NCBI GenBank assembly: GCA_903901045.1 | Contig: CAIUPP010000060.1 | Span: 6,661 to 70,660 of the forward strand | Reading direction: 5' to 3' | Length of the DNA: 64,000 bases | Source: an uncultured Planctomycetota bacterium | GTDB lineage: Bacteria > Planctomycetota > Brocadiia > CAIUPP01 | In this document: piece by piece, positions 2,955 through 45,230 of the stretch | Position numbering within the stretch: the stretch's first letter is position 1 | Layout of the letters: every line of letters begins with the position of its first letter | Made by a program: the position numbers and the translations under genes | The notes under the pieces: model-generated | Seen by the model: only the letters and a program-made list of their open reading frames with translations | What the model was told of the DNA's origin: nothing | The model's database searches: none

Positions 2955-2981
2955 ACGCCATTCTCCATGAAAGGGTCTTGT

Positions 2982-15373: not shown

Positions 15374-15439
15374 CAGGAATATTTCAGGAATTGGATGCTC
15401 AACGTGGATCAAGTCATGGTTGACGGTGCGCAGTGAATT

Positions 15440-16597
15440 ATGAAGCATTCGATATTGCGAAAAGCGACATCACACGTGACCAGCAGAGACCGTCTGCTGG
15501 TCACGTGGTCGTTCCGTGAGCCTGACCGCGTGCCCGTCGAGTTGGAGAACACCGAAGAAGTGCGCCGGCATCCGGCGACTCGGCGATTATGTGAATTCGC
15601 AGATCGGGAGGCGGATAACTTCATCTTTGTCGCTGCGGCGGATTGGGGATTCTTCGGGCTTCAGGCGGTGTCGGCGGAAGAAGTCATCGAGGAGGCGCGG
15701 GGACGGTTTGTCCGCAAGCGGCTGACGTACCGGACCTCAGTCGGAGACTTCTGCCGCATTACGCGGCATCCGTGTGATGTGGCTGACCCGGCGGATTTCT
15801 ATTGGGAACAGCGGTTCATTCGGACCCGTGAGGACATGGACCGGTTGGCTAGTGCGCCAAAAAGCGCCCTTCGTGTGCTTCATCGGGAGTATGCAGAGGC
15901 GGATGCCCGGGTTGGCAGTCGGGGAGTCCCAATTAGCGGGCTGGCGCACCCGTTGGGCAGTTTGGTTCGCATGGCCGATACGGAGTCGGTCTACGGTTGG
16001 CTGGCGACGGAGCCGGCGCTGATCCATAGGTTTCTTGATCGCTGCTATGGGCAGCAGGTAGCAGTCATTGAAGAAATGGGACGTGTCGGGATGCGGCCCT
16101 CATTTATCACGTGGGCACATGAAATGCTCATCCCTCCGTGGATGAGTCCGAGGATGTTTGACGAGTTTGTCTTCCCTTACGACAAGCGGCTCAACGATGC
16201 CATTCATCGGATTGGCGGACGCATGCGCATGCATTGCCACGGCTCCTGCATGAACTTTCTGGAGAAGTTTGCGGATATGGGTGTGGATTCCATCGAGCCG
16301 CTGGAACCGTCCCCATACGGCGATGTAGACTTGGCGGACGCCAAGCGGCGGGTGGGGGATCGAATGCTTCTTTCGGGTAACATCCCTTCCCAGAAGTTTC
16401 CATTCATGTCGCGAAAAGAAGTCCAGGAGTGCGTGAAGGAGGCTATCGCGGCGGCGGCAGGCCACGGTGGGTTCACCCTGCGTACCACAGGGGGCGGACT
16501 CGGAGCGGGAGACTTGGCGGAACCGGCGCTGGCAGGCAAAATGATTGAGAACTACGAGGCGTTCATCGATGCCGCGCTGGAATATGGCACCTATTGA
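15440..16597 (+). CDS. URO-D/MtaA-like family protein (possible Zn-dependent methyltransferase-like)
   Basis: N-terminal '...DRVPV' and 'MRMHCHGSCMNFLEKFADMGVDSIEPLEP' with a His-x-Cys motif, as in the MtaA/URO-D family. Confidence 0.7.
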   Translation: MKHSILRKATSHVTSRDRLLVTWSFREPDRVPVELENTEEVRRHPATRRLCEFADREADNFIFVAAADWGFFGLQAVSAEEVIEEARGRFVRKRLTYRTSVGDFCRITRHPCDVADPADFYWEQRFIRTREDMDRLASAPKSALRVLHREYAEADARVGSRGVPISGLAHPLGSLVRMADTESVYGWLATEPALIHRFLDRCYGQQVAVIEEMGRVGMRPSFITWAHEMLIPPWMSPRMFDEFVFPYDKRLNDAIHRIGGRMRMHCHGSCMNFLEKFADMGVDSIEPLEPSPYGDVDLADAKRRVGDRMLLSGNIPSQKFPFMSRKEVQECVKEAIAAAAGHGGFTLRTTGGGLGAGDLAEPALAGKMIENYEAFIDAALEYGTY

Positions 16598-29719: not shown

Positions 29720-30527
29720 TGGGACACCGTCGAGCTATTGCAGCAAGTAGATGGTCATTTTGTGCTTGCATGACCCAGACATTGCCCTTCTCCGTGGTGC
29801 GGGGTTAGTTTCCTTATTCCTGCAGCGAAATGTCCGGCGTTCAATGTGTAGGCACATACCGATGGCGTCGGCCTGGCTGGCAATGTAGAGCGGCACGGTG
29901 ATTTGATGAGAGCTTTCTAGTTCGTTTGTGAAAGATTTGTGAAAGAATTGACCCGAATGCCGATGATCGTGGATGACATAGAATGACATAGGATGACAAC
30001 GAGTGATGATTGAACCATCAACGACAGAAGGCTTTACGATATATCTGCATAGAGGGCAAGAAGTTGTGAAGAACGCCATCCTCGAATCCCGCCCTCTCCG
30101 CCATATCCAGCGTATCACTGGAGAAGGGGCGGAGTGTTCGCCAGTGAGTCGAAGGCTGCCGGAATTCGGCTCATAGCACGATAGGCACTGCACCCCAGTA
30201 CCTCAAAGAAGAACCTCCTTCCCCCACGATCTCACACCCGCTGGCGTCGGCGGACGTTGGCGGTGCGGCATGTCATTCCACTGTTGCGAAAGCCGAGTAG
30301 TGTATCACTTGCGCGCGAAGTCATTCTGAGTCCGCCCGTTGGCGGACGAAGAATCTTTCGACAGGCGAACGGTTAGCGCTCCGAAAGACCCTTCGCTGCG
30401 AAAGTGATTCACTGCCGAAGTCAGGGATTGAATTTGCCGGCGCGTTTGATATGCTACGATGCGTCGCGACGGATATCCTCGAACGGGATACGGCGCCGTT
30501 CCACCGGGGTTTATGAAGGAGAGGACC
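29720..30527 (+). other. ~800-bp lower-GC non-coding region with tandem decamers and an extended hairpin (candidate regulatory region / structured 5' leader)
   Basis: Tandem 'TTGTGAAAGA' x2 (~29930-29955). Three tandem '(G)ATGACAYA' units (~29975-30005). Imperfect 12-bp hairpin 'ATTCTgaGTCCGCC-cgtt-GGCGGACgaAGAAT' (~30323-30358). Repeated 'CGAAAG' and 'GAAGTCA' units. No credible ORF. Confidence 0.4.
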
Positions 30528-30995
30528 ATGACTGCGCGTTCAGGACACACCAGGATGGCCGCGGCGTTGGTTTGCCTTGCGTTGACCTGGGGATCGGTCG
30601 CGATGGCCGCCAAACTCCCGCCGACGATTGACGATTTGGATGGCGTGGTGCTCGTCGTCGTCTCGAAACAGACGCAATATGACCTGAGCAACGGCGATTC
30701 CGGCACCGGCATGCCGGCGGTGAACTGGACGTTCACCAAGGTGGACTCCACCACCCTTAACATTCACGAAACCGGCTCGACCCGTCCCGACTTCAAGGCG
30801 CACTACGAAAACGGCACCCTGGTCACCGGGACGGTGGATGCCTCATCGCTCGCGACGCAGTCCTCCTTCACCCGGATGCAACTGTCGGGCGCGCCGGGCA
30901 AGATATCCGGCAAGGGGGAGTACATGAACTTCGATACGGTCGGCGCGCGATTGCTATGGATGGGCACCATGACCGCCAAGCAACTCAATTCCTGA
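30528..30995 (+). CDS. small secreted protein, paralog A (hypothetical)
   Basis: Signal peptide 'MTARSGHTRMAAALVCLALTWGSVAMA'. GAAGGAGAGG RBS. Mature ~130 aa with 'SGAPGKISGKGEY'. Confidence 0.6.
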   Translation: MTARSGHTRMAAALVCLALTWGSVAMAAKLPPTIDDLDGVVLVVVSKQTQYDLSNGDSGTGMPAVNWTFTKVDSTTLNIHETGSTRPDFKAHYENGTLVTGTVDASSLATQSSFTRMQLSGAPGKISGKGEYMNFDTVGARLLWMGTMTAKQLNS

Positions 30996-31037: not shown

Positions 31038-31502
31038 ATGAAAGCAGTGAACTGCCCGGCAGCGATTGCAGCGGTTCTTATGGCGGTGATCCTCTCATGC
31101 GCAGTCCCGGCCCGCGCCGCCGTTCCCCCTCCACTGAACATCGACGACGTCGTCGGCACCTATGCGGTATCCGATAGTTGGGTGACGTATGATTTTACTT
31201 CCCCCGTGAGCAGTGGGAAGTCCAAGGACTCGTTCGTCATCAGCAAGACGGGCGACACCCAGTTGCATCTCGTCTGGAATGCCGGCGGCAGCGCGTGGAA
31301 CTATGACGGGTACTACTACAATGGCGTGTTCATCGTGGGAATGGGCACCACCGGCGATGCGCCGACCCCGTACATGGAGTCCATGTATGTTTTGTTCAGC
31401 GGAACGCCGGGCAAGGTGAAGATGCGCGGAAAGTACTTCTACTACGAGCAAGCCGTTGGCACGACCGATGTCGAGACCTATTCCGGCAAACGGGTTCCAT
31501 GA
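31038..31502 (+). CDS. small secreted protein, paralog B (hypothetical)
   Basis: Signal peptide 'MKAVNCPAAIAAVLMAVILSCAVPARA'. Collinear with paralog A ('PPLNIDDV' vs 'PPTIDDL'; 'SGTPGKVKMRGKY' vs 'SGAPGKISGKGEY'). Confidence 0.6.
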   Translation: MKAVNCPAAIAAVLMAVILSCAVPARAAVPPPLNIDDVVGTYAVSDSWVTYDFTSPVSSGKSKDSFVISKTGDTQLHLVWNAGGSAWNYDGYYYNGVFIVGMGTTGDAPTPYMESMYVLFSGTPGKVKMRGKYFYYEQAVGTTDVETYSGKRVP

Positions 31503-33952: not shown

Positions 33953-35983
33953 CTACTTCCGGCTGGGGACGAACTCCGCCGGGCGCAGCGCTCGGGTGAA
34001 CAGCCGCAGCGACGCGCGCTTTCCCTGCAACCGGAAGGCGGCCTGCGCCCAGGCCGAAAGGGCGGGGCTTACGCCGCCGATGGTGAGCGGGGACGTCGGG
34101 CCGAGGGCCACCGCGCCGCGCACGTCACCCAGTTTGCGGCTGGAGGGGTGGTACATCTCGCCCATCCAGAACGCGTCCTCATCGACCTTGCATCCTTTCA
34201 AGTCCGCTGCAACGCCTTCCAGATCGCCGGCCAGCGGCCGCGCCAGCAGCGCCGCCACAGCGCCGACGCCGGTTCCCATCAGGTACGGGCGTTTCGCGCC
34301 GTCCAACTGCCGGAGCGCGGCCAGGGCGGCGAGAATTTCCTGCACCCGCAGCGCGGTCAGGCTGGGGTTGAAGGCATGGAAAAGCCTGTCCTGCCGATCG
34401 ACGCGCTCCGCCTCAAGCAGCGGCGCCGTCTCCCCCTTGCCGAGCAGGTCGATAGCCAGCACCCGCACCCCGGCGTTCAGAAGTCTCTGGAGGAGCGGCC
34501 CGGGCCGATCACCCTTGAACAACTCCTTTTTCCCGGTTCCGCAGCAGATCAACGCGGCGGGAGAACGTTTGTCCGCGCCGGTGGGAACGATCCAGAGCGC
34601 GGGGGTCATCTCGCCGCGTCCGTACCGTCCGATGCTGCGCCCGCTGATCTTGTACCGGGAGGTCACAGCGTTTGCCGACGGGCTCCCGACGCTGACGGGT
34701 TCCTCCACGGCTTCCGCGCCGAGCACCTCGCGATAGGTGTTCGCCCAGACCCCCTTCAACTTGCGCAACGCGGCTTGCGTTTTCGGCGGGCGGCTGAACG
34801 CCGCCGCTTCCCTGTCGATCAATTGCTGGAGCAGGGCGTTTCCGCGCTTGAACCGCGCGGGGGGGCGGCCCTCCGGGAAGAGCCGGGATTTCTGTAGATC
34901 GGGAACCGTCAGCGGGCCTTCCTTGATGCGTGCGCCCACGCTCTTGTCGCCGGCGAGCCATTTCATGAACCAGGCGTACACATGCTCGCGCGTGTCCTTG
35001 TTGTAGTTGTGCGGGGCGGCGAAATGCACGTTTCCGACGCGGTCGGCGGCATCGTAGAAACCGTAGATGCGCTTGACCGCCGGGACGTCAACCCCGGGGT
35101 TCTGGTTCGTCCAGTCCCGCGTGACGGAGGGGAGCAGCACCGGCCTCGGCGCGAGCGCCGCGACCACCTCCACGGTGCTCAGATCGCCCAGGTGCAGCAG
35201 CGGCGCCTCCTCGCAGGTGCAGCCGCCTTGGTAATGCGAAGACATCATGCAAACCGGGATGGCCACGCGGATGCGCGGGTCGACCAGCGCGAGATAATAG
35301 GTCTGCGTGCCGCCGCCGGAGGCGCCGGTGCAGCCGATGCGTCCGGCATCCACATCAGGCAGGCTCGTCAGGAAGTCGGTGGCTCGAATGCTGTTCCACA
35401 ACTGAAGCCCGAACGGCCCGATGCCGTACAGAAGGCTGCGCCTCAGCCCATCCTTTGACCAGCGGCTTTCGACGGGCCCGGTCTTCATGTCGTCGCGATG
35501 GTCCAACTGGCAACTGTCGTTATAGCCGATCATGTCGTAGCTGAAGACCACGAAGCCGAGGCGCGCCATCATTTCGCTGCGGCCCTGGATCGCGGAGAGG
35601 TCGGTATGCTCCAGTCGGCCATTATTCCAGTGGCCGTGGGCGCTGAGGATGGCCGGGCGTTTTCCTTTGGCGTGGAGGGGGCGGAAGAGGTTGCCGGTCA
35701 CCAGGAATCCCGGACGGCTCTCAAAGCACACTTTCTCGATGGAGCAGCCGTTGAGCATGCTCCGCCCGAAGATGCGGGCGTTCAAGGGAGTCCGAGGGGG
35801 CTCGGGAGAGAGCCCCGCGGCGATGAGGACTCGCCGCCGAAGCCATTGGACGCGCTCTTCCCACTCCGCGCGCGAAGCCGGATTCGGCACGGGATAGGCG
35901 TAATTTGCGTATCGCATGCTGGAAAGGCGCGAATCCAGGAGCTTGTAGTGGCTGCCGAACACATCGATATTCAATTTGGGCAT
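33953..35983 (-). CDS. acetyl-xylan-esterase-like alpha/beta hydrolase (carbohydrate esterase)
   Basis: 'GCTGASGGGTQT' nucleophile elbow in AXE1/prolyl-oligopeptidase-like architecture. AAAGGGAG RBS before 'MPKLNID'. Confidence 0.7.
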   Translation of the reverse strand: MPKLNIDVFGSHYKLLDSRLSSMRYANYAYPVPNPASRAEWEERVQWLRRRVLIAAGLSPEPPRTPLNARIFGRSMLNGCSIEKVCFESRPGFLVTGNLFRPLHAKGKRPAILSAHGHWNNGRLEHTDLSAIQGRSEMMARLGFVVFSYDMIGYNDSCQLDHRDDMKTGPVESRWSKDGLRRSLLYGIGPFGLQLWNSIRATDFLTSLPDVDAGRIGCTGASGGGTQTYYLALVDPRIRVAIPVCMMSSHYQGGCTCEEAPLLHLGDLSTVEVVAALAPRPVLLPSVTRDWTNQNPGVDVPAVKRIYGFYDAADRVGNVHFAAPHNYNKDTREHVYAWFMKWLAGDKSVGARIKEGPLTVPDLQKSRLFPEGRPPARFKRGNALLQQLIDREAAAFSRPPKTQAALRKLKGVWANTYREVLGAEAVEEPVSVGSPSANAVTSRYKISGRSIGRYGRGEMTPALWIVPTGADKRSPAALICCGTGKKELFKGDRPGPLLQRLLNAGVRVLAIDLLGKGETAPLLEAERVDRQDRLFHAFNPSLTALRVQEILAALAALRQLDGAKRPYLMGTGVGAVAALLARPLAGDLEGVAADLKGCKVDEDAFWMGEMYHPSSRKLGDVRGAVALGPTSPLTIGGVSPALSAWAQAAFRLQGKRASLRLFTRALRPAEFVPSRK

Positions 35984-36164
35984 CGTCAGATAACTCCCTT
36001 TATCCCAGAAAAGAGCGACTCCTTCGCGACGGTCGATGCGCAACTGTCGTTATCCCGCGAACCAATATCCTACGTTCCCTGAAAGAAAATGCAAACGAGG
36101 CTCCTGCAGGACTCGGCTTGGCCGTGTGTGGCGGGACTGGCGCAACTTTTCTTCTGGTGGCACA

Positions 36165-36192
36165 TTGCACCGGGCCGCAACCTGTGTATACT
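36165..36192 (+). promoter_or_regulatory. sigma70-like promoter (TTGCAC-16 nt-TATACT) for the RND efflux operon, followed by a GC hairpin in the leader
   Basis: -35 TTGCAC at 36165-36170 and -10 TATACT at 36187-36192. 'GCCCGCC...GGCGGGC' hairpin at ~36227-36252. Confidence 0.4.
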
Positions 36193-36278
36193 GCACTGAA
36201 GGCGTGAGTTAGGACGCGAACCATGTCGCCCGCCCGTTGCGCGCGCGGCGGGCCGCATTTGGCATGAAAGGAAGTTGC

Positions 36279-37622
36279 ATGTCCACGAGAACCCGACCCA
36301 ACTCCGCCCTGGTCCTTGCGTTGGCGCTGCTCATCGCCATTGCGGGGGGGGCCGGTTATTGCGTTTGGACAGAAAGCGCCCTGGCTGCTGAGAATGCTGC
36401 GCCCGCGAAACTCTACTACTGCCCGATGCACCCCAGCTATACTTCCAACAAACCGGGGCAATGCCCCATCTGCAATATGGACCTTGTGCCGGTCGTGGAG
36501 AAGGGGGCCGCTCCCGCGGGGAAGGGCGAGCCCGCCGGGCATACCGCGATCATGCTGGATTTGCATCAGCGCCAGATGATCGGCGTGCAAATCGGAACGG
36601 TCGAGAAACGGCAGGTATCCAAAACGATTCGCGCTGTGGGGCGGGTGGATTATGACGAGCGGACGCTCTCCGTGGTGAGCCTGAAGTTCGGCGGCTGGGT
36701 GGAGGAGCTGATGGTTAAATCCGTCGGCGAGCCCGTCGCCAAAGGGCAGCCGCTTTTCTCCATATACAGCCCGGAATTGCTGGAGGCGCAGCGGAATTAC
36801 CTGCTGGCGCGCGATTCGGCGCGCATCCTCGGCGAGAAGGCTTCCGCCGATACGAAGGGGATGGCGGACGAGGCGCTGCGCGGCGCGCGCGAACGGTTGC
36901 TCCTGTGGGACTTCAGCGAGGCGCAACTCAAACAGATTGAGGAAAAGGGGGAGCCGCAGAAGCGAGTGACCATCTGCGCCCGGACGGAGGGGGTGGTCAC
37001 TGCGCGCAACATCCTCCTGGGCGCGTACGTCGAAGCGGGCAAGGAGTTGTACACCATCGCCGACCTGCGGACGGTCTGGATGAACGCCGATATCTATGAA
37101 GATGAATTGCCGCTGGTGAGCGTGGGGCAGAAGGCGCAGGTGCTGCTCTCCTCCATGCCCGGCGCTCCGCTGGCCGGCAAGGTGGCGTATATCTACCCCT
37201 ACCTCAACGATCAATCCCGGACGGTGCGCGTGCGCATGGAATTCCCCAACCCCGACGGCAAGCTCAAGCCGGGGATGTACTCCACGGTCCTGCTGGCCAC
37301 GGACATCGGGGAGCAACTCGTGGTGGATGAGAATGCCGTGCTGTTCGCCGGGGAGCACAACATCGTGTTCGTGGACAAGGGGGAGGGAGTCCTGGAGCCG
37401 CGCGAGGTGACCATCGGCGTGGCGGCCGAGGGGATGCGGGTGATCCTGGCGGGGTTGACCGAGGGAGAGAAGGTGGTGACCAGCGGCAACTTCCTGGTGG
37501 ACTCGGAAAGCCGGCTGAAGGCGGCCATCGCTCAGAGCGCAACGAAGATGGCCGCGCCTCAGGAGGTCGGGCCGCAGCCGCAAGAACCGGCCTCAGGCAT
37601 GCCGCCAATGCCGGGAATGTAA
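36279..37622 (+). CDS. efflux RND periplasmic adaptor subunit, CusB/CzcB-like, with an N-terminal Cys/Met/His metal-binding motif
   Basis: 'YYCPMHPSYTSNKPGQCPICNMDLVPV' heavy-metal-binding domain, followed by membrane-fusion-protein barrel-sandwich hairpin regions. Confidence 0.85.
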   Translation: MSTRTRPNSALVLALALLIAIAGGAGYCVWTESALAAENAAPAKLYYCPMHPSYTSNKPGQCPICNMDLVPVVEKGAAPAGKGEPAGHTAIMLDLHQRQMIGVQIGTVEKRQVSKTIRAVGRVDYDERTLSVVSLKFGGWVEELMVKSVGEPVAKGQPLFSIYSPELLEAQRNYLLARDSARILGEKASADTKGMADEALRGARERLLLWDFSEAQLKQIEEKGEPQKRVTICARTEGVVTARNILLGAYVEAGKELYTIADLRTVWMNADIYEDELPLVSVGQKAQVLLSSMPGAPLAGKVAYIYPYLNDQSRTVRVRMEFPNPDGKLKPGMYSTVLLATDIGEQLVVDENAVLFAGEHNIVFVDKGEGVLEPREVTIGVAAEGMRVILAGLTEGEKVVTSGNFLVDSESRLKAAIAQSATKMAAPQEVGPQPQEPASGMPPMPGM

Positions 37623-37647
37623 TCCAGCCGCGTTATCGAGGGCGTTC

Positions 37648-40600
37648 ATGATTGAGCGAGTCATCGAGTTCTGCGCGCGCAACAAGTACCTGGTGATCAT
37701 CCTCGCCGCGGTGGCGGTGGTCATCGGGATCTACTGCGTGCGGCACATTCCGCTCGACGCGATCCCCGACCTGTCCGACACACAGGTGATCGTCTACTCC
37801 CGGTGGGACCGCAGCCCGGACATCCTCGAAGACCAGGTCACCTACCCCATCGTCTCTTCGCTGCTGGGCGTGCCGAAGGTCAAGGCCGTCCGCGGTTTCT
37901 CCGACTTCGGCTACTCCTTCGTCTACGTCATCTTCCAGGACGGGACGGACATTTACTGGGCGCGCAGCCGCGTGCTGGAGTACCTGAGCAAGATTCAGCC
38001 CAGCCTGCCGGAGGGGGTGCGCACGGAACTGGGGCCGGACGCCACCTCGGTCGGATGGGTGTATCAATACGCCCTCGTGGACAAGAGCGGCAAGCAGAAC
38101 CTGGGGGACCTGCGCAGTTTCCAGGACTGGACGCTACGATACTGGCTGCGCGAAGTGCCGGGCGTCGCCGAGGTGGCCTCTGTCGGCGGCTTCCAGAAGC
38201 AGTACGAGGTCAACATCGATCCCAATGCCCTGCTGGCCTACAACGTCCCCATCGGTAAAGTGGTGGAGGCGATTCGCGCCGGGAACAACGACGTGGGGGG
38301 GCGGCTGGTCGAGTTCCACGGCGCGGAGTACATGGTGCGCGGGCGCGGCTACGCGAAATCCATCAAGGACATCGAGGAAATCAGCGTCGGCGTTGACAAA
38401 AACGGCACCCCCATCCTTGTGAAGAACCTGGGGCACGTGGTGCTGGGGCCGGACATCCGGCGCGGCGTCGCCGACCTGGACGGCATCGGGGACACCGCAG
38501 GCGGCATCGTGATCATGCGCCAGGGCGAGAATGCGCTCAACGTCATCCAACGCGTCAAGGCGAAGATTGAAGAGATCAAACCCTCCCTGCCGCCGGGGGT
38601 GGAGATTGTGACCACCTACGACCGCTCGACGCTCATCAAGGAATCCATCGGCACGCTCAGGCATGAACTGATCGCGGCGCTCGTGATCGTCAGCCTCACC
38701 ATTCTGCTCTTCCTCTGGCACATTCCCTCCGCCATCGTGCCGATTGTCACCATCCCCATCTCCGTCCTGCTGGCGTTCATCCCGATGTACCTGCTGGGGG
38801 TGAACGCGAACATCATGTCCATCTCCGGCATCGCCATCTCCATAGGCGTTCTGGTAGATGGCGCCATTGTCGAGGTGGAGAACGCGTACAAGAAACTGGA
38901 ACTGTGGCAGTCGGGGGGGCGCGTGGGGGATTTCCACGAAGTCCGGCTGCGCGCGCTCAAGGAGGTCGGCCCCTCCGTCTTCTTCTCGCTCCTCGTGATC
39001 GCCGTGGCGTTCATCCCCATCTTCGCCCTCGAAGAGCAGGAAGGGCGGCTCTTCAAACCGCTGGCGTACACCAAGAACCTTGTCATGGCTATCGCCGCCG
39101 TGCTGGCGGTGACGCTCGACCCCGCCGTGCGGATGCTCTTCGCGCGGATGGAATGGAAGCATTTCCGCCCGCGCCCGCTCTCCTGGCTCTGGAACCAGAT
39201 CAGCGTCGGCAAGTACTATCCCGAAGAGAAGCATCCCATAAGTCGCATTCTGTTCTGGCTTTACGAGCGACCGTGCCGCTTCGTCATCCGCCACCGGACC
39301 ATCGTGGTCGTGGCCGCGCTGCTGCTCGTGCTGACCACGATCCCGGTCTACCTTCACCTCGGCAGGGAGTTCATGCCGCCGCTGTGGGAAGGGGATATCC
39401 TGTATATGCCCACCACCATGCCGGGGCTCTCGGTGACCGAGGCGCGCGACCTGATGCAGCGGATGGACCAGGTGCTGATGACCGTGCCGGAAGTGGAGCG
39501 CGTCTTCGGCAAGGCCGGGCGCTCCGATACGGCAACGGACCCCGCCCCCTTCTCGATGATGGAGACGACCGTCCTGCTCAAGCCCCCCTCGCAATGGCGG
39601 ACGAAGGAGCGATGGTACTCCAATTGGCCGGGCTGGACTCATGGCCTGTTCCGGCCGATCTGGTCGGACCGACTCAACAAGGATGAGCTGATTGCGGAAC
39701 TCGACCGCAAGATGCAATTCGCCGGGGTGGCCAACGCCTGGACGATGCCGATCCGGGCGCGCATCGATATGCTCACCACCGGCGTCCGCACGCCGATAGG
39801 GATCAAGATTCTCGGGGAGGACCTTGCCAAGACCGAGGAGATCGGCGCGCAACTGGAAGCCATCATCCGAGAGCAGCCCGGCACGCGCAGCGTCTTCGCG
39901 GAGCGCACGGCGGGGGGGTACTTCCTCGACTTCGACCTGAAACGCGAGCAACTGGCCCGCTATGGGTTGACCGTCGACGAGGCGCAGACCGTGATCCTCA
40001 CCGCGATCGGCGGGGAGCCGGTGACGACGACCGTCGAGGGGCGCGCGCGGTACACCGTGAGTGTCCGCTACGCGCGGGACTTCCGCAGCGACTTGAACGA
40101 CCTGCGGCGCGTGCTCGTGCCCACCGCTTCGGGCGCGCAGATTCCGCTGGGGGAGCTGGCGGAGATCAAAATGACCCTCGGCCCGGGGATGATCCGCGAC
40201 GAGAACGGCATGCTGGCCGGATATGTGTACGTGGATACGGCCGAAAGCGACATCGGCGGGTATGTCGCCCGCGCCAAGGCGGCGGTTCAGAAGCAGGTGC
40301 AATTGCCCGCCGGCTATGCGCTTCAGTGGAGTGGGCAATATGAAAGCATGATCCGCGTCAAGGAACGGCTGAAGGTGGTCGTCCCGATCACGCTCTTCAT
40401 CGTCGCCATTCTGCTCTACATGAACACGAAATCGGCGGTCAAAACCACCATCATCCTGCTGGCGGTGCCGTTCTCCGCCATTGGGGCGATCTGGCTGCTG
40501 TACTTCCTCGGGTACAACATCTCGATTGCGGTCTGGGTGGGGCTTATCGCCCTGATGGGGCTGGACGCCGAGACGGGGGTGTTCATGCTCCTGTTCCTCG

Positions 40601-40938
40601 ACCTCTCGTATTATGAGCGCGTGCGCGAGGGAAAGATGAAGACCTTCGAGGACCTGACCGAGGCGGTGGTGCATGGCGCGGTCAAGCGCATCCGGCCCAA
40701 GATGATGACGGTCTGCGCGGCGTTCATCGGGCTGATGCCGATCATGTGGTCGATGAGCGCCGGCTCGGACATGATGAAGCGCGTGGCTGCGCCGATGGTG
40801 GGCGGACTCGTGACCAGTTTCATCCTGGAGCTTCTGATCTACCCGGCGGTCTATACGGCATGGAAATGGCGCTTCGAGATGAAGCGCGGCACGGTGGACG
40901 TGAGCACGCTGCCGTCGCCGCATTTGAGAGGGCATTAG
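37648..40938 (+). CDS. heavy-metal efflux RND permease, CusA/CzcA family (HME-RND)
   Basis: 1096 aa. Start 'MIERVIEFCARNKYLVIILAAVAVVIGI' typical of CusA/CzcA. 12-TM architecture with large periplasmic loops. Confidence 0.9.
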   Translation: MIERVIEFCARNKYLVIILAAVAVVIGIYCVRHIPLDAIPDLSDTQVIVYSRWDRSPDILEDQVTYPIVSSLLGVPKVKAVRGFSDFGYSFVYVIFQDGTDIYWARSRVLEYLSKIQPSLPEGVRTELGPDATSVGWVYQYALVDKSGKQNLGDLRSFQDWTLRYWLREVPGVAEVASVGGFQKQYEVNIDPNALLAYNVPIGKVVEAIRAGNNDVGGRLVEFHGAEYMVRGRGYAKSIKDIEEISVGVDKNGTPILVKNLGHVVLGPDIRRGVADLDGIGDTAGGIVIMRQGENALNVIQRVKAKIEEIKPSLPPGVEIVTTYDRSTLIKESIGTLRHELIAALVIVSLTILLFLWHIPSAIVPIVTIPISVLLAFIPMYLLGVNANIMSISGIAISIGVLVDGAIVEVENAYKKLELWQSGGRVGDFHEVRLRALKEVGPSVFFSLLVIAVAFIPIFALEEQEGRLFKPLAYTKNLVMAIAAVLAVTLDPAVRMLFARMEWKHFRPRPLSWLWNQISVGKYYPEEKHPISRILFWLYERPCRFVIRHRTIVVVAALLLVLTTIPVYLHLGREFMPPLWEGDILYMPTTMPGLSVTEARDLMQRMDQVLMTVPEVERVFGKAGRSDTATDPAPFSMMETTVLLKPPSQWRTKERWYSNWPGWTHGLFRPIWSDRLNKDELIAELDRKMQFAGVANAWTMPIRARIDMLTTGVRTPIGIKILGEDLAKTEEIGAQLEAIIREQPGTRSVFAERTAGGYFLDFDLKREQLARYGLTVDEAQTVILTAIGGEPVTTTVEGRARYTVSVRYARDFRSDLNDLRRVLVPTASGAQIPLGELAEIKMTLGPGMIRDENGMLAGYVYVDTAESDIGGYVARAKAAVQKQVQLPAGYALQWSGQYESMIRVKERLKVVVPITLFIVAILLYMNTKSAVKTTIILLAVPFSAIGAIWLLYFLGYNISIAVWVGLIALMGLDAETGVFMLLFLDLSYYERVREGKMKTFEDLTEAVVHGAVKRIRPKMMTVCAAFIGLMPIMWSMSAGSDMMKRVAAPMVGGLVTSFILELLIYPAVYTAWKWRFEMKRGTVDVSTLPSPHLRGH

Positions 40939-40939
40939 G

Positions 40940-42310
40940 ATGGCGGGAATGCGCACAGGCGTCCTGGCGGCCGGCGTGATCGCGATGCTCATCCTGGCGA
41001 CCGGCTGTCCCGCGCTTCGTCCGAAGGGCGAGAAGGAGGAGCGCAACCGCATGATGGAAGCGGGCAGGGACTACGTCAAGCCGATCGAAATCCCCGCGCT
41101 CTCGGCAGTCCCCGCTCCGGAGGAGTACGTGCGGCTCGCATTTGTCACCAACTCGAACCTGCAGGCGCGCTACTGGGAATGGCGTTCCGCCATCGAACGC
41201 GTGCCCGTGGTATCCAGTTGGCCCAATGTGGCCGTGCCCTTCAGCCTGCTGCTCGGAGCAGGGGGGGGCGGGCTGTGGGACCGCACCACGCTGGGGCTTG
41301 CCAACGACCCGATGACCGACATCCCGTATCCCACCAAGCTCACCTCGGCGGGGCGCAGGTCGCTGCAGGAGGCGCGCGCGGTGGGGCTGCGCTTCGAGGC
41401 CGCCCGTTTCGAGTTGCAGCGGGCCGTGCTGACCACCTGCTATGACCTGGCGCTGCTGGGTGAATCGCTGCGAATACAGGAGGAGAATGTCTCGCTGCTG
41501 CGCCTGACCGTCCGGCAAATGGCGAGTCGCGTGGGAACGGCGGGGGGGGCGCAGCAGGAACTGCTCAAAGCCCAGACCGATCTCGATCTGGCCGAAAATG
41601 AACTGGCCAACCTCCAGTCGCAGCAGGCGCCGCTGGCGGCGAAGATGAACGCGCTCATCGGGCGCGCGGCATCCGAGCCGGTTCCGCTGCCGCCGGCGCT
41701 CCCGGCGCCGCGGACGCTCCCGCTGGCAGACGACCAGCTGATCCAACTCGGGGCGGAGCGCAACCAGGAACTGGCCGCGCTGGCGCGCGACGTCGCCGGC
41801 AAGAGGGAGGCCCTGACCTTGGCGAAGCGCCAGCGCCTGCCCGATTTCAGTCTTTCGGCAAGCCTGACGGGGGGCGTTACGGGAGCCCTCGGCGGGATGG
41901 TTGTCCTGCCGACGCGGCGCGAGGCGATTCAGGCCGGGATCAAGCAAGCGCGCGCTGAACTTCAGACCGCCAGGGCGGCGCAGGCGCAATATCAGCGCGA
42001 CCTCGCAACCAGCTTCGTGCTGAACCTGGTGCTGCTGCGGAATAACGAGCGCCAGATAGCGCTCTTCCAGGATGCCATCATCCCTCGCGCGCGGCAGATC
42101 ACCAGGGTTGTTCAATCCGCCTACGCTTCGGGCGGGGCGCGGTACACGGAACTGCTGGACGCGCAGCGGACGCTCCTGGAAGCGCGGCTGACCGTCGCGC
42201 AACTGCAAATGGAAAGAGAGAAAGCGTTGGCTTCCATTGAGGCCACCGCGGCAGTGGATGTGGCCGCTATGAAATCGCCATGTGAGTCAGAACATGCGTC
42301 TAGTCAGTGA
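40940..42310 (+). CDS. TolC-family outer-membrane efflux factor (CusC-like)
   Basis: Lipoprotein-type N-terminus 'LILATGCPAL'. Duplicated alpha-helical/beta-barrel repeats. Confidence 0.8.
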   Translation: MAGMRTGVLAAGVIAMLILATGCPALRPKGEKEERNRMMEAGRDYVKPIEIPALSAVPAPEEYVRLAFVTNSNLQARYWEWRSAIERVPVVSSWPNVAVPFSLLLGAGGGGLWDRTTLGLANDPMTDIPYPTKLTSAGRRSLQEARAVGLRFEAARFELQRAVLTTCYDLALLGESLRIQEENVSLLRLTVRQMASRVGTAGGAQQELLKAQTDLDLAENELANLQSQQAPLAAKMNALIGRAASEPVPLPPALPAPRTLPLADDQLIQLGAERNQELAALARDVAGKREALTLAKRQRLPDFSLSASLTGGVTGALGGMVVLPTRREAIQAGIKQARAELQTARAAQAQYQRDLATSFVLNLVLLRNNERQIALFQDAIIPRARQITRVVQSAYASGGARYTELLDAQRTLLEARLTVAQLQMEREKALASIEATAAVDVAAMKSPCESEHASSQ

Positions 42311-42470
42311 CATACGGCGTAGTCGTGGTGTGAGGCCGGAAGAGGCGTGTTCTAGCAAGACCGCAAAGAGAGATTCCTAAGTACGTTTTACTTGCGCGGG
42401 CGTGCGCGGGGTGATATGCTTTGTGCTGCGTGAAGCGAATTCCGGTGACGTTCTTGCAGGAGGATTCTCA

Positions 42471-43778
42471 ATGCAAAGTTTGAATCGTCTTTTCCTGGTC
42501 TCCCTGGTTGTCGTTGGCATCGTGTGCGCGCTCTCCGTATCCGCAGCGGTTCCCGCCCCGGCAGCACGCGGGCACGCGCCGGCCCTGTTTGGGACCATTG
42601 TGAGCGTGGACGCCGTCGCGGGCAACGTGGTGATCGCCACCGCCGCCCGGCATTCCACTCCCAGCCAGCAGGTGACCGTCGCCACTGACGCGAACACGGT
42701 TATTACCCTTGACGGCCAGCCCGCGACGCTGGCGGCGCTTGTGGCGGGCATGCTGGTGAAAGTGCAGCCCACCACCGGCACGGCGACGCTCATCGCAGCC
42801 CGCACGCCTCCTCCTCCGCCTCCGCTGCGCGGCGTGATTGTGAGCGTTGACACGACGACCGGCGACGTGCAGGTGGCCGTCGATGCCAGGCACAGCGAGC
42901 CAACCCTCCTCGTGACCGTCCCCACCGACGCGAACACGGTCGTTACCCTCGATGGCCAGCCCTCGACCCTGGCGGCGCTTGCCGCTGGGATGTTCGTCAA
43001 AGTGCAGCCTTCGACCGGCGTGGCGGTCAGCATCGACGCGCGCACGCCTCCTGCCCCTGCGCCGCTCGAAGGAGTCATCGTGAACGTGGACAGCGCAACG
43101 GGCGACGTTGTGGTCGCGACCCGAGGCCGGCATAGCGGCCCGGACGTTCAGGTGACCGTGTTCACCGACTCGAACACCCTGGTCACCATTGACGGCAACG
43201 CCGCCACAGTGCCCGACCTGCAGGCCGGGATGTTCGTCAAGGTTCAGCCGCCGAGCGGCACCGCCACAAGCATCGAGGCGCGCACGCCGCCGCCCCCGCC
43301 GCCTCTGGTGGGCGTGATCGTGAGTGTGGATGCCGCGACGGGGAACGTCGTGGTCGCCACGGGGGGAGGGCGCCATGATCCCGCTCAGCAGGTGACCGTG
43401 GCAACTGACGCGAATACGGTGGTCACCATCGACGGCAACGCCGCCACGGTGGCCGCGCTCCTGCCCGGCATGTCCGTCAAAGTTCAGCCGCGGTCCGGCA
43501 CGGCGGCGAGCATCGAGGCTCAAACGCAGCCGTTGCTCGGCATCGTCGTCAGCGTGGACACCGTCACCGGCAATGTGGTGGTTGCCTCGCGAAACAATCG
43601 CATGACCCCTGTCCAGCAGGTCACCGTAGCCACGGATGCGAACACCGTGGTCACCATTGACGGCAACGCCGCCACGGTGGCTGACCTGAAGGCCGGGATG
43701 TTCGTCAAGATCAGTCCTTCCACCGGCACCGCGGCCACCATCGTCGCGCACACGGTGCCCGGTCCGCATTCGATGTAA
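42471..43778 (+). CDS. secreted protein composed of five tandem DUF5666-like ~80-aa repeats
   Basis: Signal peptide 'MQSLNRLFLVSLVVVGIVCALSVSAA'. Repeat unit 'PPPPLxGVIVSVDxxTGNVVVATxxRHxxPxQQVTVATDANTVVTIDGNAATVAALxAGMFVKVQPxTGTAxSIEARTP' x5. Confidence 0.8.
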   Translation: MQSLNRLFLVSLVVVGIVCALSVSAAVPAPAARGHAPALFGTIVSVDAVAGNVVIATAARHSTPSQQVTVATDANTVITLDGQPATLAALVAGMLVKVQPTTGTATLIAARTPPPPPPLRGVIVSVDTTTGDVQVAVDARHSEPTLLVTVPTDANTVVTLDGQPSTLAALAAGMFVKVQPSTGVAVSIDARTPPAPAPLEGVIVNVDSATGDVVVATRGRHSGPDVQVTVFTDSNTLVTIDGNAATVPDLQAGMFVKVQPPSGTATSIEARTPPPPPPLVGVIVSVDAATGNVVVATGGGRHDPAQQVTVATDANTVVTIDGNAATVAALLPGMSVKVQPRSGTAASIEAQTQPLLGIVVSVDTVTGNVVVASRNNRMTPVQQVTVATDANTVVTIDGNAATVADLKAGMFVKISPSTGTAATIVAHTVPGPHSM

Positions 43779-43801
43779 GCGGAGTAGCGTATCGCATGAC
43801 T

Positions 43802-43841
43802 TGGAGACCTGCCGTCAGTGGGCGGCAGGTCTCCTTTGTTT
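43802..43841 (+). terminator. rho-independent terminator
   Basis: 'GGAGACCTGCCG-tcagtggg-CGGCAGGTCTCC' stem-loop followed by TTTGTTTT, ~25 nt after the stop. Confidence 0.7.
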
Positions 43842-43979
43842 TCAGGGGCGCGTTGGCCGCCGGGGTGTTTCATGGTTTTGCGCGTTGGCGCTCTTTCCAA
43901 AGCGGGTTCAGGAGTGTAATATCGCATCCTGCGCATGAGCGAATCGCCCGACGAAGGCCGGTGATTTGGAGAGGACTCC

Positions 43980-45230
43980 ATGAAGGTATCGGCAAAAGAG
44001 CGTGCCATCCTGCGCGAATGCGCCAGGCAGATCGCTGAAATCGCCGCGCTCCCCGTTCAGAAGGAGAAGGCGGAACTCTGGCGCAGGCTCAACGACCTCG
44101 AGCGCGTCCGCCCGATGGTCTGGCTCAACGAGCACCCCTGGCATGAACTGAACGTGAACGACGAACTGACCTTGCGCTGCGAAAGCGAATGGGCGCGCGG
44201 CCTCGAGCAGGAGTTCCGCCAGCTTCTTTACAATTGGAACCACCTGCGGGTGGACATGATCGTCAGCGACTACCTCCCTTCCCCTCTCCTCCTGCAAGGC
44301 GCGGACTTCGGCATCTCCGAGGAGGTGGACGTCGTTCGCACCGATTCGGCCAGCACGGTCGTCTCGCGCCACTTCCACCCGCAGATTGTCGAGCCCGGCG
44401 ATATCGAGAAAATCCGCATGCCCAAAGTGACACTCGACGCGGCGGCCACGGCCCTGGAGTTCGACACGCGGAGCGAGCTTTTCGACGGCATCATGCCCGT
44501 GCGCAAGGTCGGCTTGAAGGGGTATTGGTTCACCCCCTGGGACAACCTCATCCGCTTCTGGGGCGTGGAGCAGGCGATGATGGACCTGGTGCTGCGCCCG
44601 GAGATGGTCAACGCGGCGGTATCGCGCTGGGTGGATGCCAGCCTGAGCCTGATCGAGCAGGTGGAGAAGCTGAACGCCCTGGCGCTCAACAGCGATAACA
44701 CGCGCGTCGGCAGCGGCGGCTACGGCTATACGAAGTCGCTCCCCGCCGCGGACGCGACGCCCGGTCGCGCCCGGCTTCGCGACTTGTGGGGCTGCTCCAA
44801 CGCGCAGATCTTCTCCGAAGTCTCCCCCGCGATGCACTGGGAATTCGCCCTCCGGCATGAAATGCGCTGGCTGGAGCGATGGGGCCTCACCTACTACGGT
44901 TGCTGCGAGCCGCTGGACCGAAAGATGGACATACTCCGCCGCATTCCGAACCTGCGCAAGATCTCCATGAGCCCCAAGGCCGACCCGGCGCGCGCGGCCG
45001 AGGCCCTGGGCCGGCAGTACGTCTTTTCCATGAAGCCGAATCCCGCCATTCTGGCCGAAGACACCTGGCGTCCCGAAAGGGCGCGCCAGGAGTTGGAGGA
45101 GGCGCTCGGCAAAGCCCGCCACTGCAACGTCGAGATCATCATGAAGGACGTCTCCACGGTCCGCTATGAGCCGCAGCGCCTGTGGGAATGGGCGCGCATG
45201 GCGGTCGAGGTGGCGCAGTCGCTTGACTGA
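43980..45230 (+). CDS. hypothetical protein, possibly a divergent URO-D-like TIM barrel
   Basis: N-terminal 'SAKERAILREC...VRPMVWLNEHP' resembles the URO-D-family N-terminus. 'YYGCCEPLDRKMDILRRIPNLRKISMSP' resembles the C-terminal region. The assignment is weak. Confidence 0.6.
   Translation: MKVSAKERAILRECARQIAEIAALPVQKEKAELWRRLNDLERVRPMVWLNEHPWHELNVNDELTLRCESEWARGLEQEFRQLLYNWNHLRVDMIVSDYLPSPLLLQGADFGISEEVDVVRTDSASTVVSRHFHPQIVEPGDIEKIRMPKVTLDAAATALEFDTRSELFDGIMPVRKVGLKGYWFTPWDNLIRFWGVEQAMMDLVLRPEMVNAAVSRWVDASLSLIEQVEKLNALALNSDNTRVGSGGYGYTKSLPAADATPGRARLRDLWGCSNAQIFSEVSPAMHWEFALRHEMRWLERWGLTYYGCCEPLDRKMDILRRIPNLRKISMSPKADPARAAEALGRQYVFSMKPNPAILAEDTWRPERARQELEEALGKARHCNVEIIMKDVSTVRYEPQRLWEWARMAVEVAQSLD

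Follow-up and report, generated by a model that had tools for sequence, protein, structure and literature searches.

A secreted five-repeat DUF5666-like protein encoded directly behind a predicted CusCBA-type efflux operon in an uncultured Planctomycetota bacterium

The window, i.e. the whole analysed stretch of 64,000 nucleotides, contains a heavy-metal efflux operon followed by a gene for a repeat protein; the rest of it is dominated by glycoside-hydrolase-like genes (GHL6, Glyco_hydro_42M, DUF4838, Laminin_G_3 and AXE1-like). The features considered here were the following:

36237..37622, + strand: CusB-like periplasmic adaptor, with an N-terminal HMBD (CPMHP...CPICNM) and a Met-rich C-terminal tail, ASGMPPMPGM
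37648..40938, + strand: CusA-type heavy-metal RND pump, monovalent Cu/Ag type (TIGR00914, 1024 bits)
40940..42310, + strand: outer-membrane factor (OMF), TolC/CusC-like (Pfam OEP, 83.2 bits), starting one base past the cusA stop
42311..42470, + strand: intergenic spacer between the OMF gene and the repeat gene, 160 bp, holding the AGGAGG ribosome-binding site of the latter
42471..43778, + strand: gene of the five-repeat DUF5666-like protein, 435 aa, predicted to be secreted, mature form about 40.7 kDa, pI 5.2
42471..42545, + strand: putative Sec signal peptide, aa 1-25, cleavage after VSA, read by eye
42591..42830, + strand: repeat 1, aa 41-120; loop H61 (42651-42653); M94 (42750-42752); linker ARTPPPPPPL
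42831..43070, + strand: repeat 2, aa 121-200; loop H141 (42891-42893); M174 (42990-42992); the repeat modelled singly
43071..43310, + strand: repeat 3, aa 201-280; loop H221 (43131-43133); M254 (43230-43232)
43311..43538, + strand: repeat 4, aa 281-356; loop H302 (43374-43376); M334 (43470-43472); short linker AQTQPLL
43539..43775, + strand: repeat 5, aa 357-435; Arg-Met loop, M378 (43602-43604); M410 (43698-43700)
43803..43844, + strand: intrinsic terminator with a 14-bp stem, 10 G-C pairs, a 4-nt loop and a T-rich tail

An earlier, sequence-only reading of the locus had placed the repeat gene directly after a CusB-CusA-TolC efflux operon, and Pfam and NCBIfam matches confirmed that position. 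The adaptor matched HlyD_D23 with 266 bits, RND_mfp with 145.7 bits (over the cut-off) and the CusB model PRK09783 with 172.6 bits (under its cut-off), and the metal-binding domain that had been recognised in it was recovered as HMBD (53.9 bits, aa 60-86); its translation probably begins further in, at an ATG near 36264-36279. The pump scored 981 bits to E. coli CusA and 486 bits to ZneA. Its TM4 is 'AISIGVLVDGAIVEVEN', with Ala instead of Asp at the first position and the pattern AI..G..VD, and its Met residues align to the CusA motifs LYMP, (L/S)(E/M)M(V/M)ETT (LEMVETT) and RIDML; the pump residue numbering and the TM4/three-Met motif rule that sets CusA apart from divalent-cation pumps are taken here as given. 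Judged by these sequences, the operon is predicted to be a genuine Cu(I)/Ag(I) efflux system of the CusCBA-type HME-RND class. No canonical CusF was found either at this operon or at 80 related CusA loci, and therefore a substitute is conceivable.

The ORF 42471-43778 starts with an ATG preceded by AGGAGG, ends with TAA and is a real gene; antisense ORFs across it (42468-43769 and 42377-43078, minus strand) were rejected as high-GC repeat artefacts. The repeat gene closes the series begun by cusB(HMBD)-cusA-OMF on the same strand; 160 bp lie between it and the OMF gene, the gaps between the pump genes being 25 bp and 1 bp. Within the spacer neither a terminator-like hairpin nor a sigma-70-like promoter match was detected, the scan not extending to Planctomycetota promoters; RNA folding of the spacer was no better than that of shuffles (z-score 0.18), its GC content falls to 0.55, and an Rfam scan of 35900-44100 gave zero matches. 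The terminator attributed to the repeat gene was verified, with the hairpin at 43803-43834, and is the only strong one on the + strand between 36237 and 45400; it and a gap of about 200 bp set off the downstream genes. The repeat gene is probably read through from the cus operon.

The N-terminus (MQSLNR, a hydrophobic stretch and a VSA/A cleavage point) appears Sec-like. The sole Cys, C19, lies within the putative signal peptide and is not surrounded by a canonical lipobox. Residues 1-32 had pLDDT below 50 in the full-length model.

Tandem organisation was evident from TRF (period 240 bp, scores 529-571) and from a repeat HMM, which matched each of the five repeats with E-values of 1e-41 to 1e-45. 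Together with the Sec-like N-terminus and the Pfam match discussed below, this upheld the initial description as a secreted, five-repeat, DUF5666-like protein. The finer claims on repeat conservation stood in part. A His and a Met had been ascribed to every repeat: the Met of 'GM' is indeed present in 5/5, and the His of the Arg-His segment in repeats 1-4 only, repeat 5 carrying Arg-Met. The longer motif AGM(F/L/S)VKVQP is not constant either, as it reads PGMSVKVQP in repeat 4 and AGMFVKISP in repeat 5. Linkers like ARTPPPPPPL had been described throughout; this form follows repeat 1, PPAPAP joins repeats 2-3, and AQTQPLL between repeats 4-5 is not proline-rich, so that three linkers are proline-rich. 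In repeats 4-5 the Arg-His/Arg-Met dipeptide lies one residue nearer to Pro. All His residues of the protein sit in loops, at the barrel end or in tails, and the C-terminal tail of repeat 5, AHTVPGPHSM, includes H427, H433 and M435. Pairwise dS among repeats was 0.6-1.06 and dN 0.21-0.39, with the Arg codons being CGG, AGG or CGC; the five repeats are old and diverged. Arg-[His/Met]...Pro was nevertheless kept in 5/5 beta2-beta3 (L23) loops while flanking residues and codons diverged, which indicates purifying selection on that loop.

The match to Pfam DUF5666 (PF18914) is marginal, with 30.0 bits (E 6.4e-07) against a gathering cut-off of 27, and aligns aa 41-110 with profile positions 2-57 of 60. 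Weak Pfam matches to IgGFc_binding, LysM_OapA and DUF3203 were discarded as composition-driven partial alignments. Relatives retrieved by the repeat-profile search matched DUF5666 with higher scores: P0014 with 162 bits (8 stretches), P0081 with 83, P0003 with 65 and P0012 with 50. The same search delivered 2444 cluster representatives of the wider family at E<=1e-3, among which fusions with Peptidase_M56, FecR and SLH domains occur (SLH in P0101, P0126 and P0137); the repeat protein itself gave no Pfam match to SLH or any other anchor domain. A GTDB genome search with a tight repeat alignment yielded 8 matching stretches with no relatives among them, and a metagenome scan for relatives gave only 7 loci. 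The literature consulted holds only list-type mentions of DUF5666 and gives no function, in agreement with its earlier designation as a domain without assigned function.

Repeat protein and DUF5666 have in common a barrel of about 60-70 aa, frequent tandem arrays and an extracytoplasmic location. Classic members carry 'GD.V' and often Arg/Lys at position 37, whereas the repeat protein has 'GM.V' and a hydrophobic residue at 37, and differs furthermore by the beta4-beta5 turn 'P.TGTA', the proline-rich linkers and the Arg-His in the beta2-beta3 loop. By sequence comparison, it is best described as a divergent DUF5666 protein of a Met-type subfamily. Members of this subfamily are stand-alone secreted proteins with 1-5 repeats, and those of their contigs that offer taxonomic clues are Planctomycetota-like. 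It should be added that the repeats of P0002/P0004 have beta2/loop/beta3 segments rich in Met, that relatives give weak cross-matches to CusF_Ec, as does a His-tailed protein of locus L020 described below, and that one Met-type homolog terminates in a CxxCH motif.

The proposed small-barrel fold was supported by structure prediction: repeat 2, modelled singly with AF2, gave a small five-stranded OB-like barrel with pLDDT of 85.6, and each repeat models as such a barrel. Among solved structures, Foldseek ranked first the S-layer self-assembly domain of the Viridibacillus arvi SLP (PDB 9FS9, 9fs9_A, aa 765-844), with prob 0.99, TM 0.58 and rmsd of 3.7 A over 74 columns. SLH anchors are also found in the wider DUF5666 family. 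Identity to this domain is 15% (E 0.07), the repeat protein is devoid of SLH or another anchor, and self-assembly on its part would be hypothetical. CusF structures followed (3e6z, 2vb2, 2qcp; prob 0.93-0.97, TM 0.53, E 0.1-0.2), and other OB folds scored alike. The full-length model matched the tandem OB domains of Mpa; since its pTM was 0.43, the orientation of the barrels is not fixed in it. Its pLDDT was below 50 at the RHS loop of repeat 3 (aa 220-222) and the RMT loop of repeat 5 (aa 377-379).

The conserved Met deserves separate consideration. The 10 closest homologs carry it in 41/41 repeats, whatever the gene context, and it recurs in the single-domain relatives examined. Across 681 wider-family repeats, profile position 37 is hydrophobic in 294/301 repeats of Met type and is Arg/Lys in 68/154 of Asp type (Fisher p 7e-37, the repeats not being independent). 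This invariance regardless of context, along with the covariation with a hydrophobic residue at 37 and the pairing of Asp with Arg/Lys in classic repeats, points to a structural residue, as far as sequences can tell; the Met would cap the hydrophobic core of the barrel, packing on the Leu/Ile ahead of the 'DG' turn. Mean-field DCA on 532 repeats was dominated by gap/indel artefacts and only two couplings were used, 51-37 and 21-58, both weak; they agree with the placement of His and Met by OB topology. According to this topology the L23 loop bearing the His is beside the beta4-beta5 turn and the Met is at the other end of beta4, so the two would lie at opposite ends of the modelled barrel, approximately 20 A, or about one strand length, apart.

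Comparison with copper-binding proteins was mostly negative. CusF of E. coli (PF11604; PDB 2VB2, 2QCP, 3E6Z) is likewise a five-stranded OB-type barrel encoded with a cus operon, and both share a strand-by-strand pattern (G.V..VD...-hairpin; L..L..G[DM].V.V); however, CusF is a single copy and the repeat protein has five in tandem, unconserved with related cus operons. The metal site of CusF, which we take to be His36, Met47 and Met49, capped by Trp44, at the beta2/beta3 end, has no counterpart here: the ligand pattern H-x7-W-x2-M-x-M is absent, the protein contains no Trp, beta3 begins LLVTV/QQVTV, and the repeat-protein Met aligns with the Asp of CusF 'TGDKV', a non-ligand. There was no CusF_Ec Pfam match at E<=0.01, hhalign of the repeat profile with E. 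coli CusF gave probability <1% over 16 aligned columns, and a PDB profile search with the repeat sequence returned no CusF. Remote sequence homology was consequently rejected, both profile comparisons being non-significant, and the likeness is one of fold only. Sponges of the PcoE/SilE type, as well as a Met/Gly-rich protein of locus L010, are also small, secreted and encoded with copper/silver efflux genes; those proteins, however, lack a fold and abound in Met/His motifs. The repeat protein has folded domains, His and Met each make up 1.7% of it, with no enrichment in Met, His or Cys, and it holds no MxM, MxxM or HxxH motif, its only motif of this sort being the C-terminal 'HSM'. In the closest homologs the loop His is missing. 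The idea that His and Met form a CusF-like Cu(I)/Ag(I) ligand set was thus not borne out, with the pattern absent, the His not shared by the closest homologs and the Met apparently structural.

Co-occurrence of DUF5666 with cus genes across genomes, also envisaged earlier, did not materialise. The flanks of the 80 closest CusA loci, 1.24 Mb in total, held the repeat protein in 0/80 cases and any DUF5666-like gene in 2/80, and reciprocally the 13 distinct contexts of homologs contained no CusA, CusB or OMF gene. Two other copper islands, L020 and L076, encode His-tailed single-domain DUF5666-like proteins, in a conserved pairing with a cytochrome c; a homolog search with the L020 protein matched only itself. 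In locus L010, a related operon of the same gene order, the corresponding place downstream of the OMF is taken by the gene of a secreted protein rich in Met and Gly.

We consider that the repeat protein is a lineage-specific DUF5666 protein whose barrels serve as generic spacer or interaction modules and not as CusF-type metal sites, and give this a probability of roughly one half. It would be Sec-exported and soluble, with five OB-like beta-barrels, each about 70 residues long, arranged like beads on a string with short linkers. The barrels would most likely serve for generic spacing or protein interaction (self-association) outside the cytoplasm, because the subfamily consists of stand-alone secreted proteins and arrays of such repeats recur in the wider family as extracytoplasmic portions of BlaR1/M56 sensors, FecR-type anti-sigma factors and SLH-anchored surface proteins. 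Adjacency to cusB(HMBD)-cusA-OMF would then be a lineage-specific arrangement and not a conserved partnership. Counted against the spacer reading are the shared strand, the terminator-free 160-bp gap and the strong terminator only after the repeat gene, and likewise the lack of a canonical CusF, the selected Arg-[His/Met]...Pro loop, the His residues in loops, barrel end and tails, the His-tailed proteins of L020/L076 and the L010 protein.

Most of these observations favour an accessory protein that would handle Cu(I)/Ag(I) in the periplasm in place of the missing CusF, a reading which we regard as rather unlikely, as we do a metal role of the protein in general. The lineage would have co-opted a DUF5666 scaffold for its operon; the flexible beta2-beta3 loops would bring His, or Met in the case of repeat 5, to the barrel end where CusF binds metal, terminal tails (H35; AHTVPGPHSM) would add ligands, and metal captured with modest affinity would be transferred to the CusB HMBD or CusA. 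In its favour are the operon-like placement under a common terminator, a CusA-type pump with no canonical CusF motif nearby, the CusF-like fold and the CusF_Ec cross-matches, as well as the selected Arg-[His/Met]..Pro loop, in which His-to-Met is a swap of soft-metal ligands; the loops contain His or Met in 5/5 cases, as compared with Met, His or Cys in 138/681 loops of the wider family. The copper-island proteins, the L010 protein and the Met-rich P0002/P0004 segments point the same way. Nevertheless, a repeat provides a single His and a single Met, the latter apparently structural and distant from the loop by topology; Arg beside His is unusual at a cation site, and the lacking CusF pattern, the closest homologs without loop His, the composition and the 80 + 13 loci without conserved association all weigh against it. 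A high-capacity sponge or chaperone for the pump, as originally suggested, was not supported on the grounds of association, structural Met, unconserved His and composition; because relatives never adjoin such pumps and the conserved Met looks structural, little speaks for a metal sponge, possible though this role is. Improbable, in our judgement, is the bolder version in which the array forms a multivalent periplasmic Cu(I)/Ag(I) relay replacing CusF, each site being shared by two neighbouring barrels, of which the preceding one contributes its Met-capped top and the next one the flexible Arg-His/Arg-Met loop at its bottom, the AHTVPGPHSM tail completing the last site, and in which DUF5666 is a CusF-related metal-handling fold. 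The cytochrome c pairs and the CxxCH-ending homolog are hints of such a fold.

That the gene has a transcript of its own and encodes an envelope or surface protein with no relation to the pump, its Arg-His loops binding anionic envelope or substrate polymers (glycans, LPS or peptidoglycan), appears more improbable still. Arg-His pairs typically bind anions, the 160-bp gap far exceeds the two other gaps and coincides with a GC drop, glycoside-hydrolase-like genes abound in the window, relatives include SLH-anchored surface proteins, and an S-layer domain heads the structural matches. Against this stand the spacer without a promoter-like match within the reach of the scan, the terminator and gap ahead of the downstream genes, and the lack of any match to carbohydrate-binding families or anchor domains.

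Preferring the spacer or interaction reading, we see the main yield of the analysis in the definition of a Met-type, largely Planctomycetota-like subfamily within DUF5666, a functionally unassigned family whose size is considerable (more than 2400 cluster representatives in the search), and in documenting that the adjacency of the repeat protein to the pump is not conserved. The hallmark Met would represent a structural swap for the charged pair (Asp with Arg/Lys) often seen in classic DUF5666. For a link of this family to metals, the pairs of cytochrome c and His-tailed DUF5666 proteins in copper islands are the better lead. If copper or silver binding were true, it would provide the first function for DUF5666 and show how cus operons that lack CusF and have HMBD-bearing adaptors deliver their metal.

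The gene that follows the pump operon encodes a five-repeat DUF5666-like protein, as the sequence-only reading had proposed, and it does have a strong terminator of its own. The features of the unit are as follows (OMF, outer-membrane factor):

36237-37622, + strand, CusB-like adaptor with HlyD_D23 and HMBD (CPMHP...CPICNM, aa 60-86)
37648-40938, + strand, CusA-type RND pump
40940-42310, + strand, OEP outer-membrane factor
42471-43778, + strand, repeat gene
43803-43834, + strand, terminator, the only strong one on this strand between 36237 and 45400, directly 3' of the repeat gene
43980-45230, + strand, 416-aa ORF immediately 3' of the terminator

The ATG of the repeat gene lies seven bases 3' of AGGAGG, its stop codon is TAA and its 435-aa product starts with a Sec-signal form (MQSLNR, a hydrophobic stretch and VSA-A), the sole Cys being located inside the signal region without a canonical lipobox. 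Five tandem repeats (aa 41-120, 121-200, 201-280, 281-356 and 357-435) were supported by a 240-bp period in Tandem Repeats Finder (scores 529-571) and by a repeat HMM match for each of them (E 1e-41 to 1e-45). Pairwise dS of 0.6-1.06 and dN of 0.21-0.39 indicate that the repeats are old. The linkers, described initially as proline-rich, are so in the first three cases (ARTPPPPPPL, ARTPPAPAPL, ARTPPPPPPL), but not in the last (AQTQPLL). Similarly, a His and a Met had been assigned to every repeat: the Met of the 'GM' motif is present in 5/5, whereas Arg-His occurs in repeats 1-4 only and is replaced by Arg-Met in repeat 5.

The Pfam match to DUF5666 was just above the threshold (30.0 bits vs 27). 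Only 10 relatives, with 40-53% identity, came out of a word-indexed search over 5.8 billion proteins, and an exhaustive search with a profile of 33 aligned repeats yielded 2444 cluster representatives with 1-12 repeats each, 62 of them with E < 1e-30; several were strong DUF5666 matches (up to 162 bits). Non-repeat parts of these relatives comprised BlaR1/M56 sensor domains, FecR anti-sigma domains and SLH cell-wall anchors, and secreted single-domain versions were found as well.

A single repeat was modelled with AlphaFold as a small six-strand barrel with a short 3-10 turn (pLDDT 85.6, pTM 0.70). Foldseek against PDB gave no match below E 0.001 for this model; the S-layer self-assembly domain 9fs9_A ranked first (probability 0.99, TM 0.58), followed by E. 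coli CusF (3e6z, 2vb2, 2qcp; probability 0.93-0.97, TM 0.53) and, further below, by SSB, Stn1/Ten1 and proteasomal OB folds. In the full-length model (pLDDT 82.8, pTM 0.43), which matched the tandem OB domains of Mpa, barrels were well defined with mutual orientation not fixed, and confidence was lowest, among internal segments, in the RHS loop (repeat 3) and the RMT loop (repeat 5). Given these matches to OB folds, each repeat is predicted to be an OB-like barrel. The likeness to CusF is real at the fold level but generic: PDB sequence search and hhalign detected no relation at the sequence level, and weak CusF_Ec cross-matches came from some relatives and from a single-domain DUF5666 protein of the CusA locus L020.

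The 'GM' Met is conserved in 41/41 repeats of the ten closest homologs, and the single-domain relatives examined also carry it, whatever their genomic context. Across 681 repeats from the 155 top-ranking family members, Met occupies this position in 44% and Asp in 23%, with a bimodal split per protein (52 all-Met, 39 with no Met). The position varies together with profile position 37, which precedes the 'DG' turn and is Val/Ile/Leu/Met/Phe in 294/301 Met-type repeats (Arg/Lys in 2) and Arg/Lys in 68/154 Asp-type repeats from 29 proteins (Fisher p 7e-37, the repeats not being independent of each other). On the simplest reading, the two positions are in contact: in the Met-type subfamily the Met would pack against a hydrophobic partner, while in classic DUF5666 repeats both places are frequently taken by a charged pair, Asp with Arg/Lys. 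Covariation of this kind marks a structural residue, and the Met is most simply read as one, rather than as a free ligand for metal. In an alignment made by eye, strand against strand, we take it to stand opposite the non-ligand Asp of CusF 'TGDKV'.

The His is situated in the beta2-beta3 loop, which is variable in length and sequence among relatives; it is mostly absent from the closest homologs, and in the wider family a Met, His or Cys occurs in only 138/681 loops, which is not above background. All five loops of the protein nevertheless share Arg-[His/Met] and a Pro further on, although every neighbouring residue differs. Retention of the dipeptide with changed neighbours, differing codons (CGG CAT, AGG CAC, CGG CAT, CGC CAT and CGC ATG in repeats 1-5) and dS near saturation argues for selection on it, and this is the best remaining point for a specific ligand-binding role. 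In the OB fold, with strand order 1-2-3-5-4, the beta2-beta3 loop adjoins the beta4-beta5 turn. The Met starting beta4 would thus be at the opposite barrel end, some 20 A from the His loop; the DCA couplings 21-58 and 51-37, both weak, are consistent with this. The CusF site consists of a His ending beta2, two Met starting beta3 and a Trp in the loop; it is absent from the repeat protein, which lacks Trp and in which beta3 begins LLVTV/QQVTV. The proposed CusF-like His and Met site is not supported. Neither is the 'high-capacity sponge', the mature protein being devoid of Trp, Tyr and Cys, with His and Met at 1.7% each and no MxM, MxxM or HxxH motifs.

The position behind a Cu/Ag pump and the metal-binding domain of the adaptor, which also has a Met-rich C-terminal tail (ASGMPPMPGM), were both confirmed. 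The RND pump scored 981 bits to E. coli CusA vs 486 to ZneA; its LYMP, LEMVETT-like and RIDML motifs, which we take to be the positions of CusA M573, M623 and M672, retain Met, and the first TM4 motif position is Ala, not Asp, altogether indicating the CusA type. The closest CusA homologs (77% identity) belong to Planctomycetota MAGs. Gaps are 25 bp and 1 bp inside the pump operon and 160 bp before the repeat gene. Since no terminator-like hairpin, sigma-70-like promoter, stable fold or Rfam element was found in the latter and the only strong terminator is 3' of the repeat gene, read-through from the pump operon is plausible.

The association was searched both ways. Among the 80 closest CusA loci from GTDB species genomes (66-77% identical, median flanks of 10 kb per side, 1.24 Mb in total), CusB was present in 76 and OMF in 58, and the repeat protein or any other window neighbour in none; even at E<=5, DUF5666-like ORFs occurred only in L020, L076 and, marginally, L062. 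Conversely, none of 13 distinct homolog contexts, of which six reached at least about 8 kb to one or both sides, contained CusA, CusB or OMF. They held Planctomycetota hallmark genes (PSCyt2/PSD1, DUF1501) and tandem paralog clusters 3' of an lpxA-like gene. In four such contigs (L088:3403-4406, L089, L091:7341-9065 and L092) two or three tandem single-domain Met-type paralogs of ~100-125 aa with Lys-rich tails follow the lpxA-like acyltransferase, on contigs with hallmark genes of this phylum. An identical repeat protein was found on at least seven contigs from several metagenomes, with the same neighbours, including the ORF at 43980-45230, in the four listed; this shows only the recurrence of one organism. 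No conserved genomic link between DUF5666 and HME-RND operons thus emerged, and the adjacency is lineage-specific.

The CusF ligand motif was not detected in any ORF of the window or the 80 related loci, so the whole clade of these pumps appears to be CusF-less. In L010, a locus of a Planctomycetota MAG whose cusB-cusA-OMF order is the same, the OMF is followed by a gene (15237-15776, +) for a secreted protein of 179 aa. This protein has a tail rich in Met and Gly (MGGGGMTGGGMNGGGMTGGG...), no Pfam match and no relation to the repeat protein. L020 (Ca. Binatia; 5281-6430, +) and L076 (Vicinamibacterales; 2563-3791, -), from two different phyla, have a c-type cytochrome gene followed directly by one for a secreted single-domain DUF5666-like protein. 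The cytochromes (PF13442) are orthologous (54% identical, E 1e-63), the DUF5666-like proteins have His-rich tails (AHGSGSH...HHRDEPEHHQH and AHEGHEHK), and the surroundings are those of copper resistance (OMF-CusB-CusA, in L076 with a multicopper oxidase). Among homologs, the metagenome protein P0005 (370 aa, 53% identical, contig of only 2 kb) has three Met-type repeats, then a long linker rich in Pro and Thr and, at the C-terminus, a heme-c-type motif (CAQCH), and may be a barrel array fused to a cytochrome c-like module. P0002/P0004 (L090:1010-2281) carry five repeats, the third and fifth with Met-rich segments (GMMSVAPSMMKTPGEMMNIQ; TWMMGS) that correspond to beta2/loop/beta3, and a C-terminal GPGMGMP tail; this looks far more Cu(I)-binding-like than anything in our protein, and the 2.9-kb contig has no metal genes. 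DUF5666-like barrels can, as these cases show, carry decorations for metal contexts; that the repeat protein is one of them does not follow.

Elsewhere in the window, glycoside-hydrolase-like genes dominate, and the divergent gene 5' of the pump operon is an esterase/peptidase-like hydrolase. Other features were:

4110-7106, - strand, 998-aa ORF, no Pfam match at E<=1e-5
9920-15373, + strand, 1817-aa ORF, no Pfam match at E<=1e-5
30459-30995, + strand, small secreted protein, no Pfam match
31038-31502, + strand, small secreted protein, adjacent paralog of the preceding (29% identity, E 3e-10)

The ORF at 43980-45230 had no Pfam or NCBIfam match.

We favour, at a probability of about 0.5, a soluble protein of the envelope, specific to this lineage and composed of DUF5666 barrels with a generic spacer or interaction role, which is by chance, or has recently become, the final gene in the cus unit. 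Its main rival, a modest Cu/Ag accessory based on the His loop, is possible, if doubtful: the dipeptide and Pro kept in all five loops, the lack of CusF-motif ORFs, the Met/Gly-rich protein after the OMF in L010, the His-tailed proteins in copper neighbourhoods and the CAQCH and Met-rich elements of homologs speak for it, but the association with HME-RND operons is not conserved, the composition is not sponge-like, the Met reads as structural and the His is peculiar to this protein. Less likely still, as a minor alternative, is an envelope protein that binds anions or glycans and is transcribed independently.

For metal biology of DUF5666, the pair of cytochrome and His-tailed protein is a better lead than the repeat protein, which itself joins a known but uncharacterised domain family.
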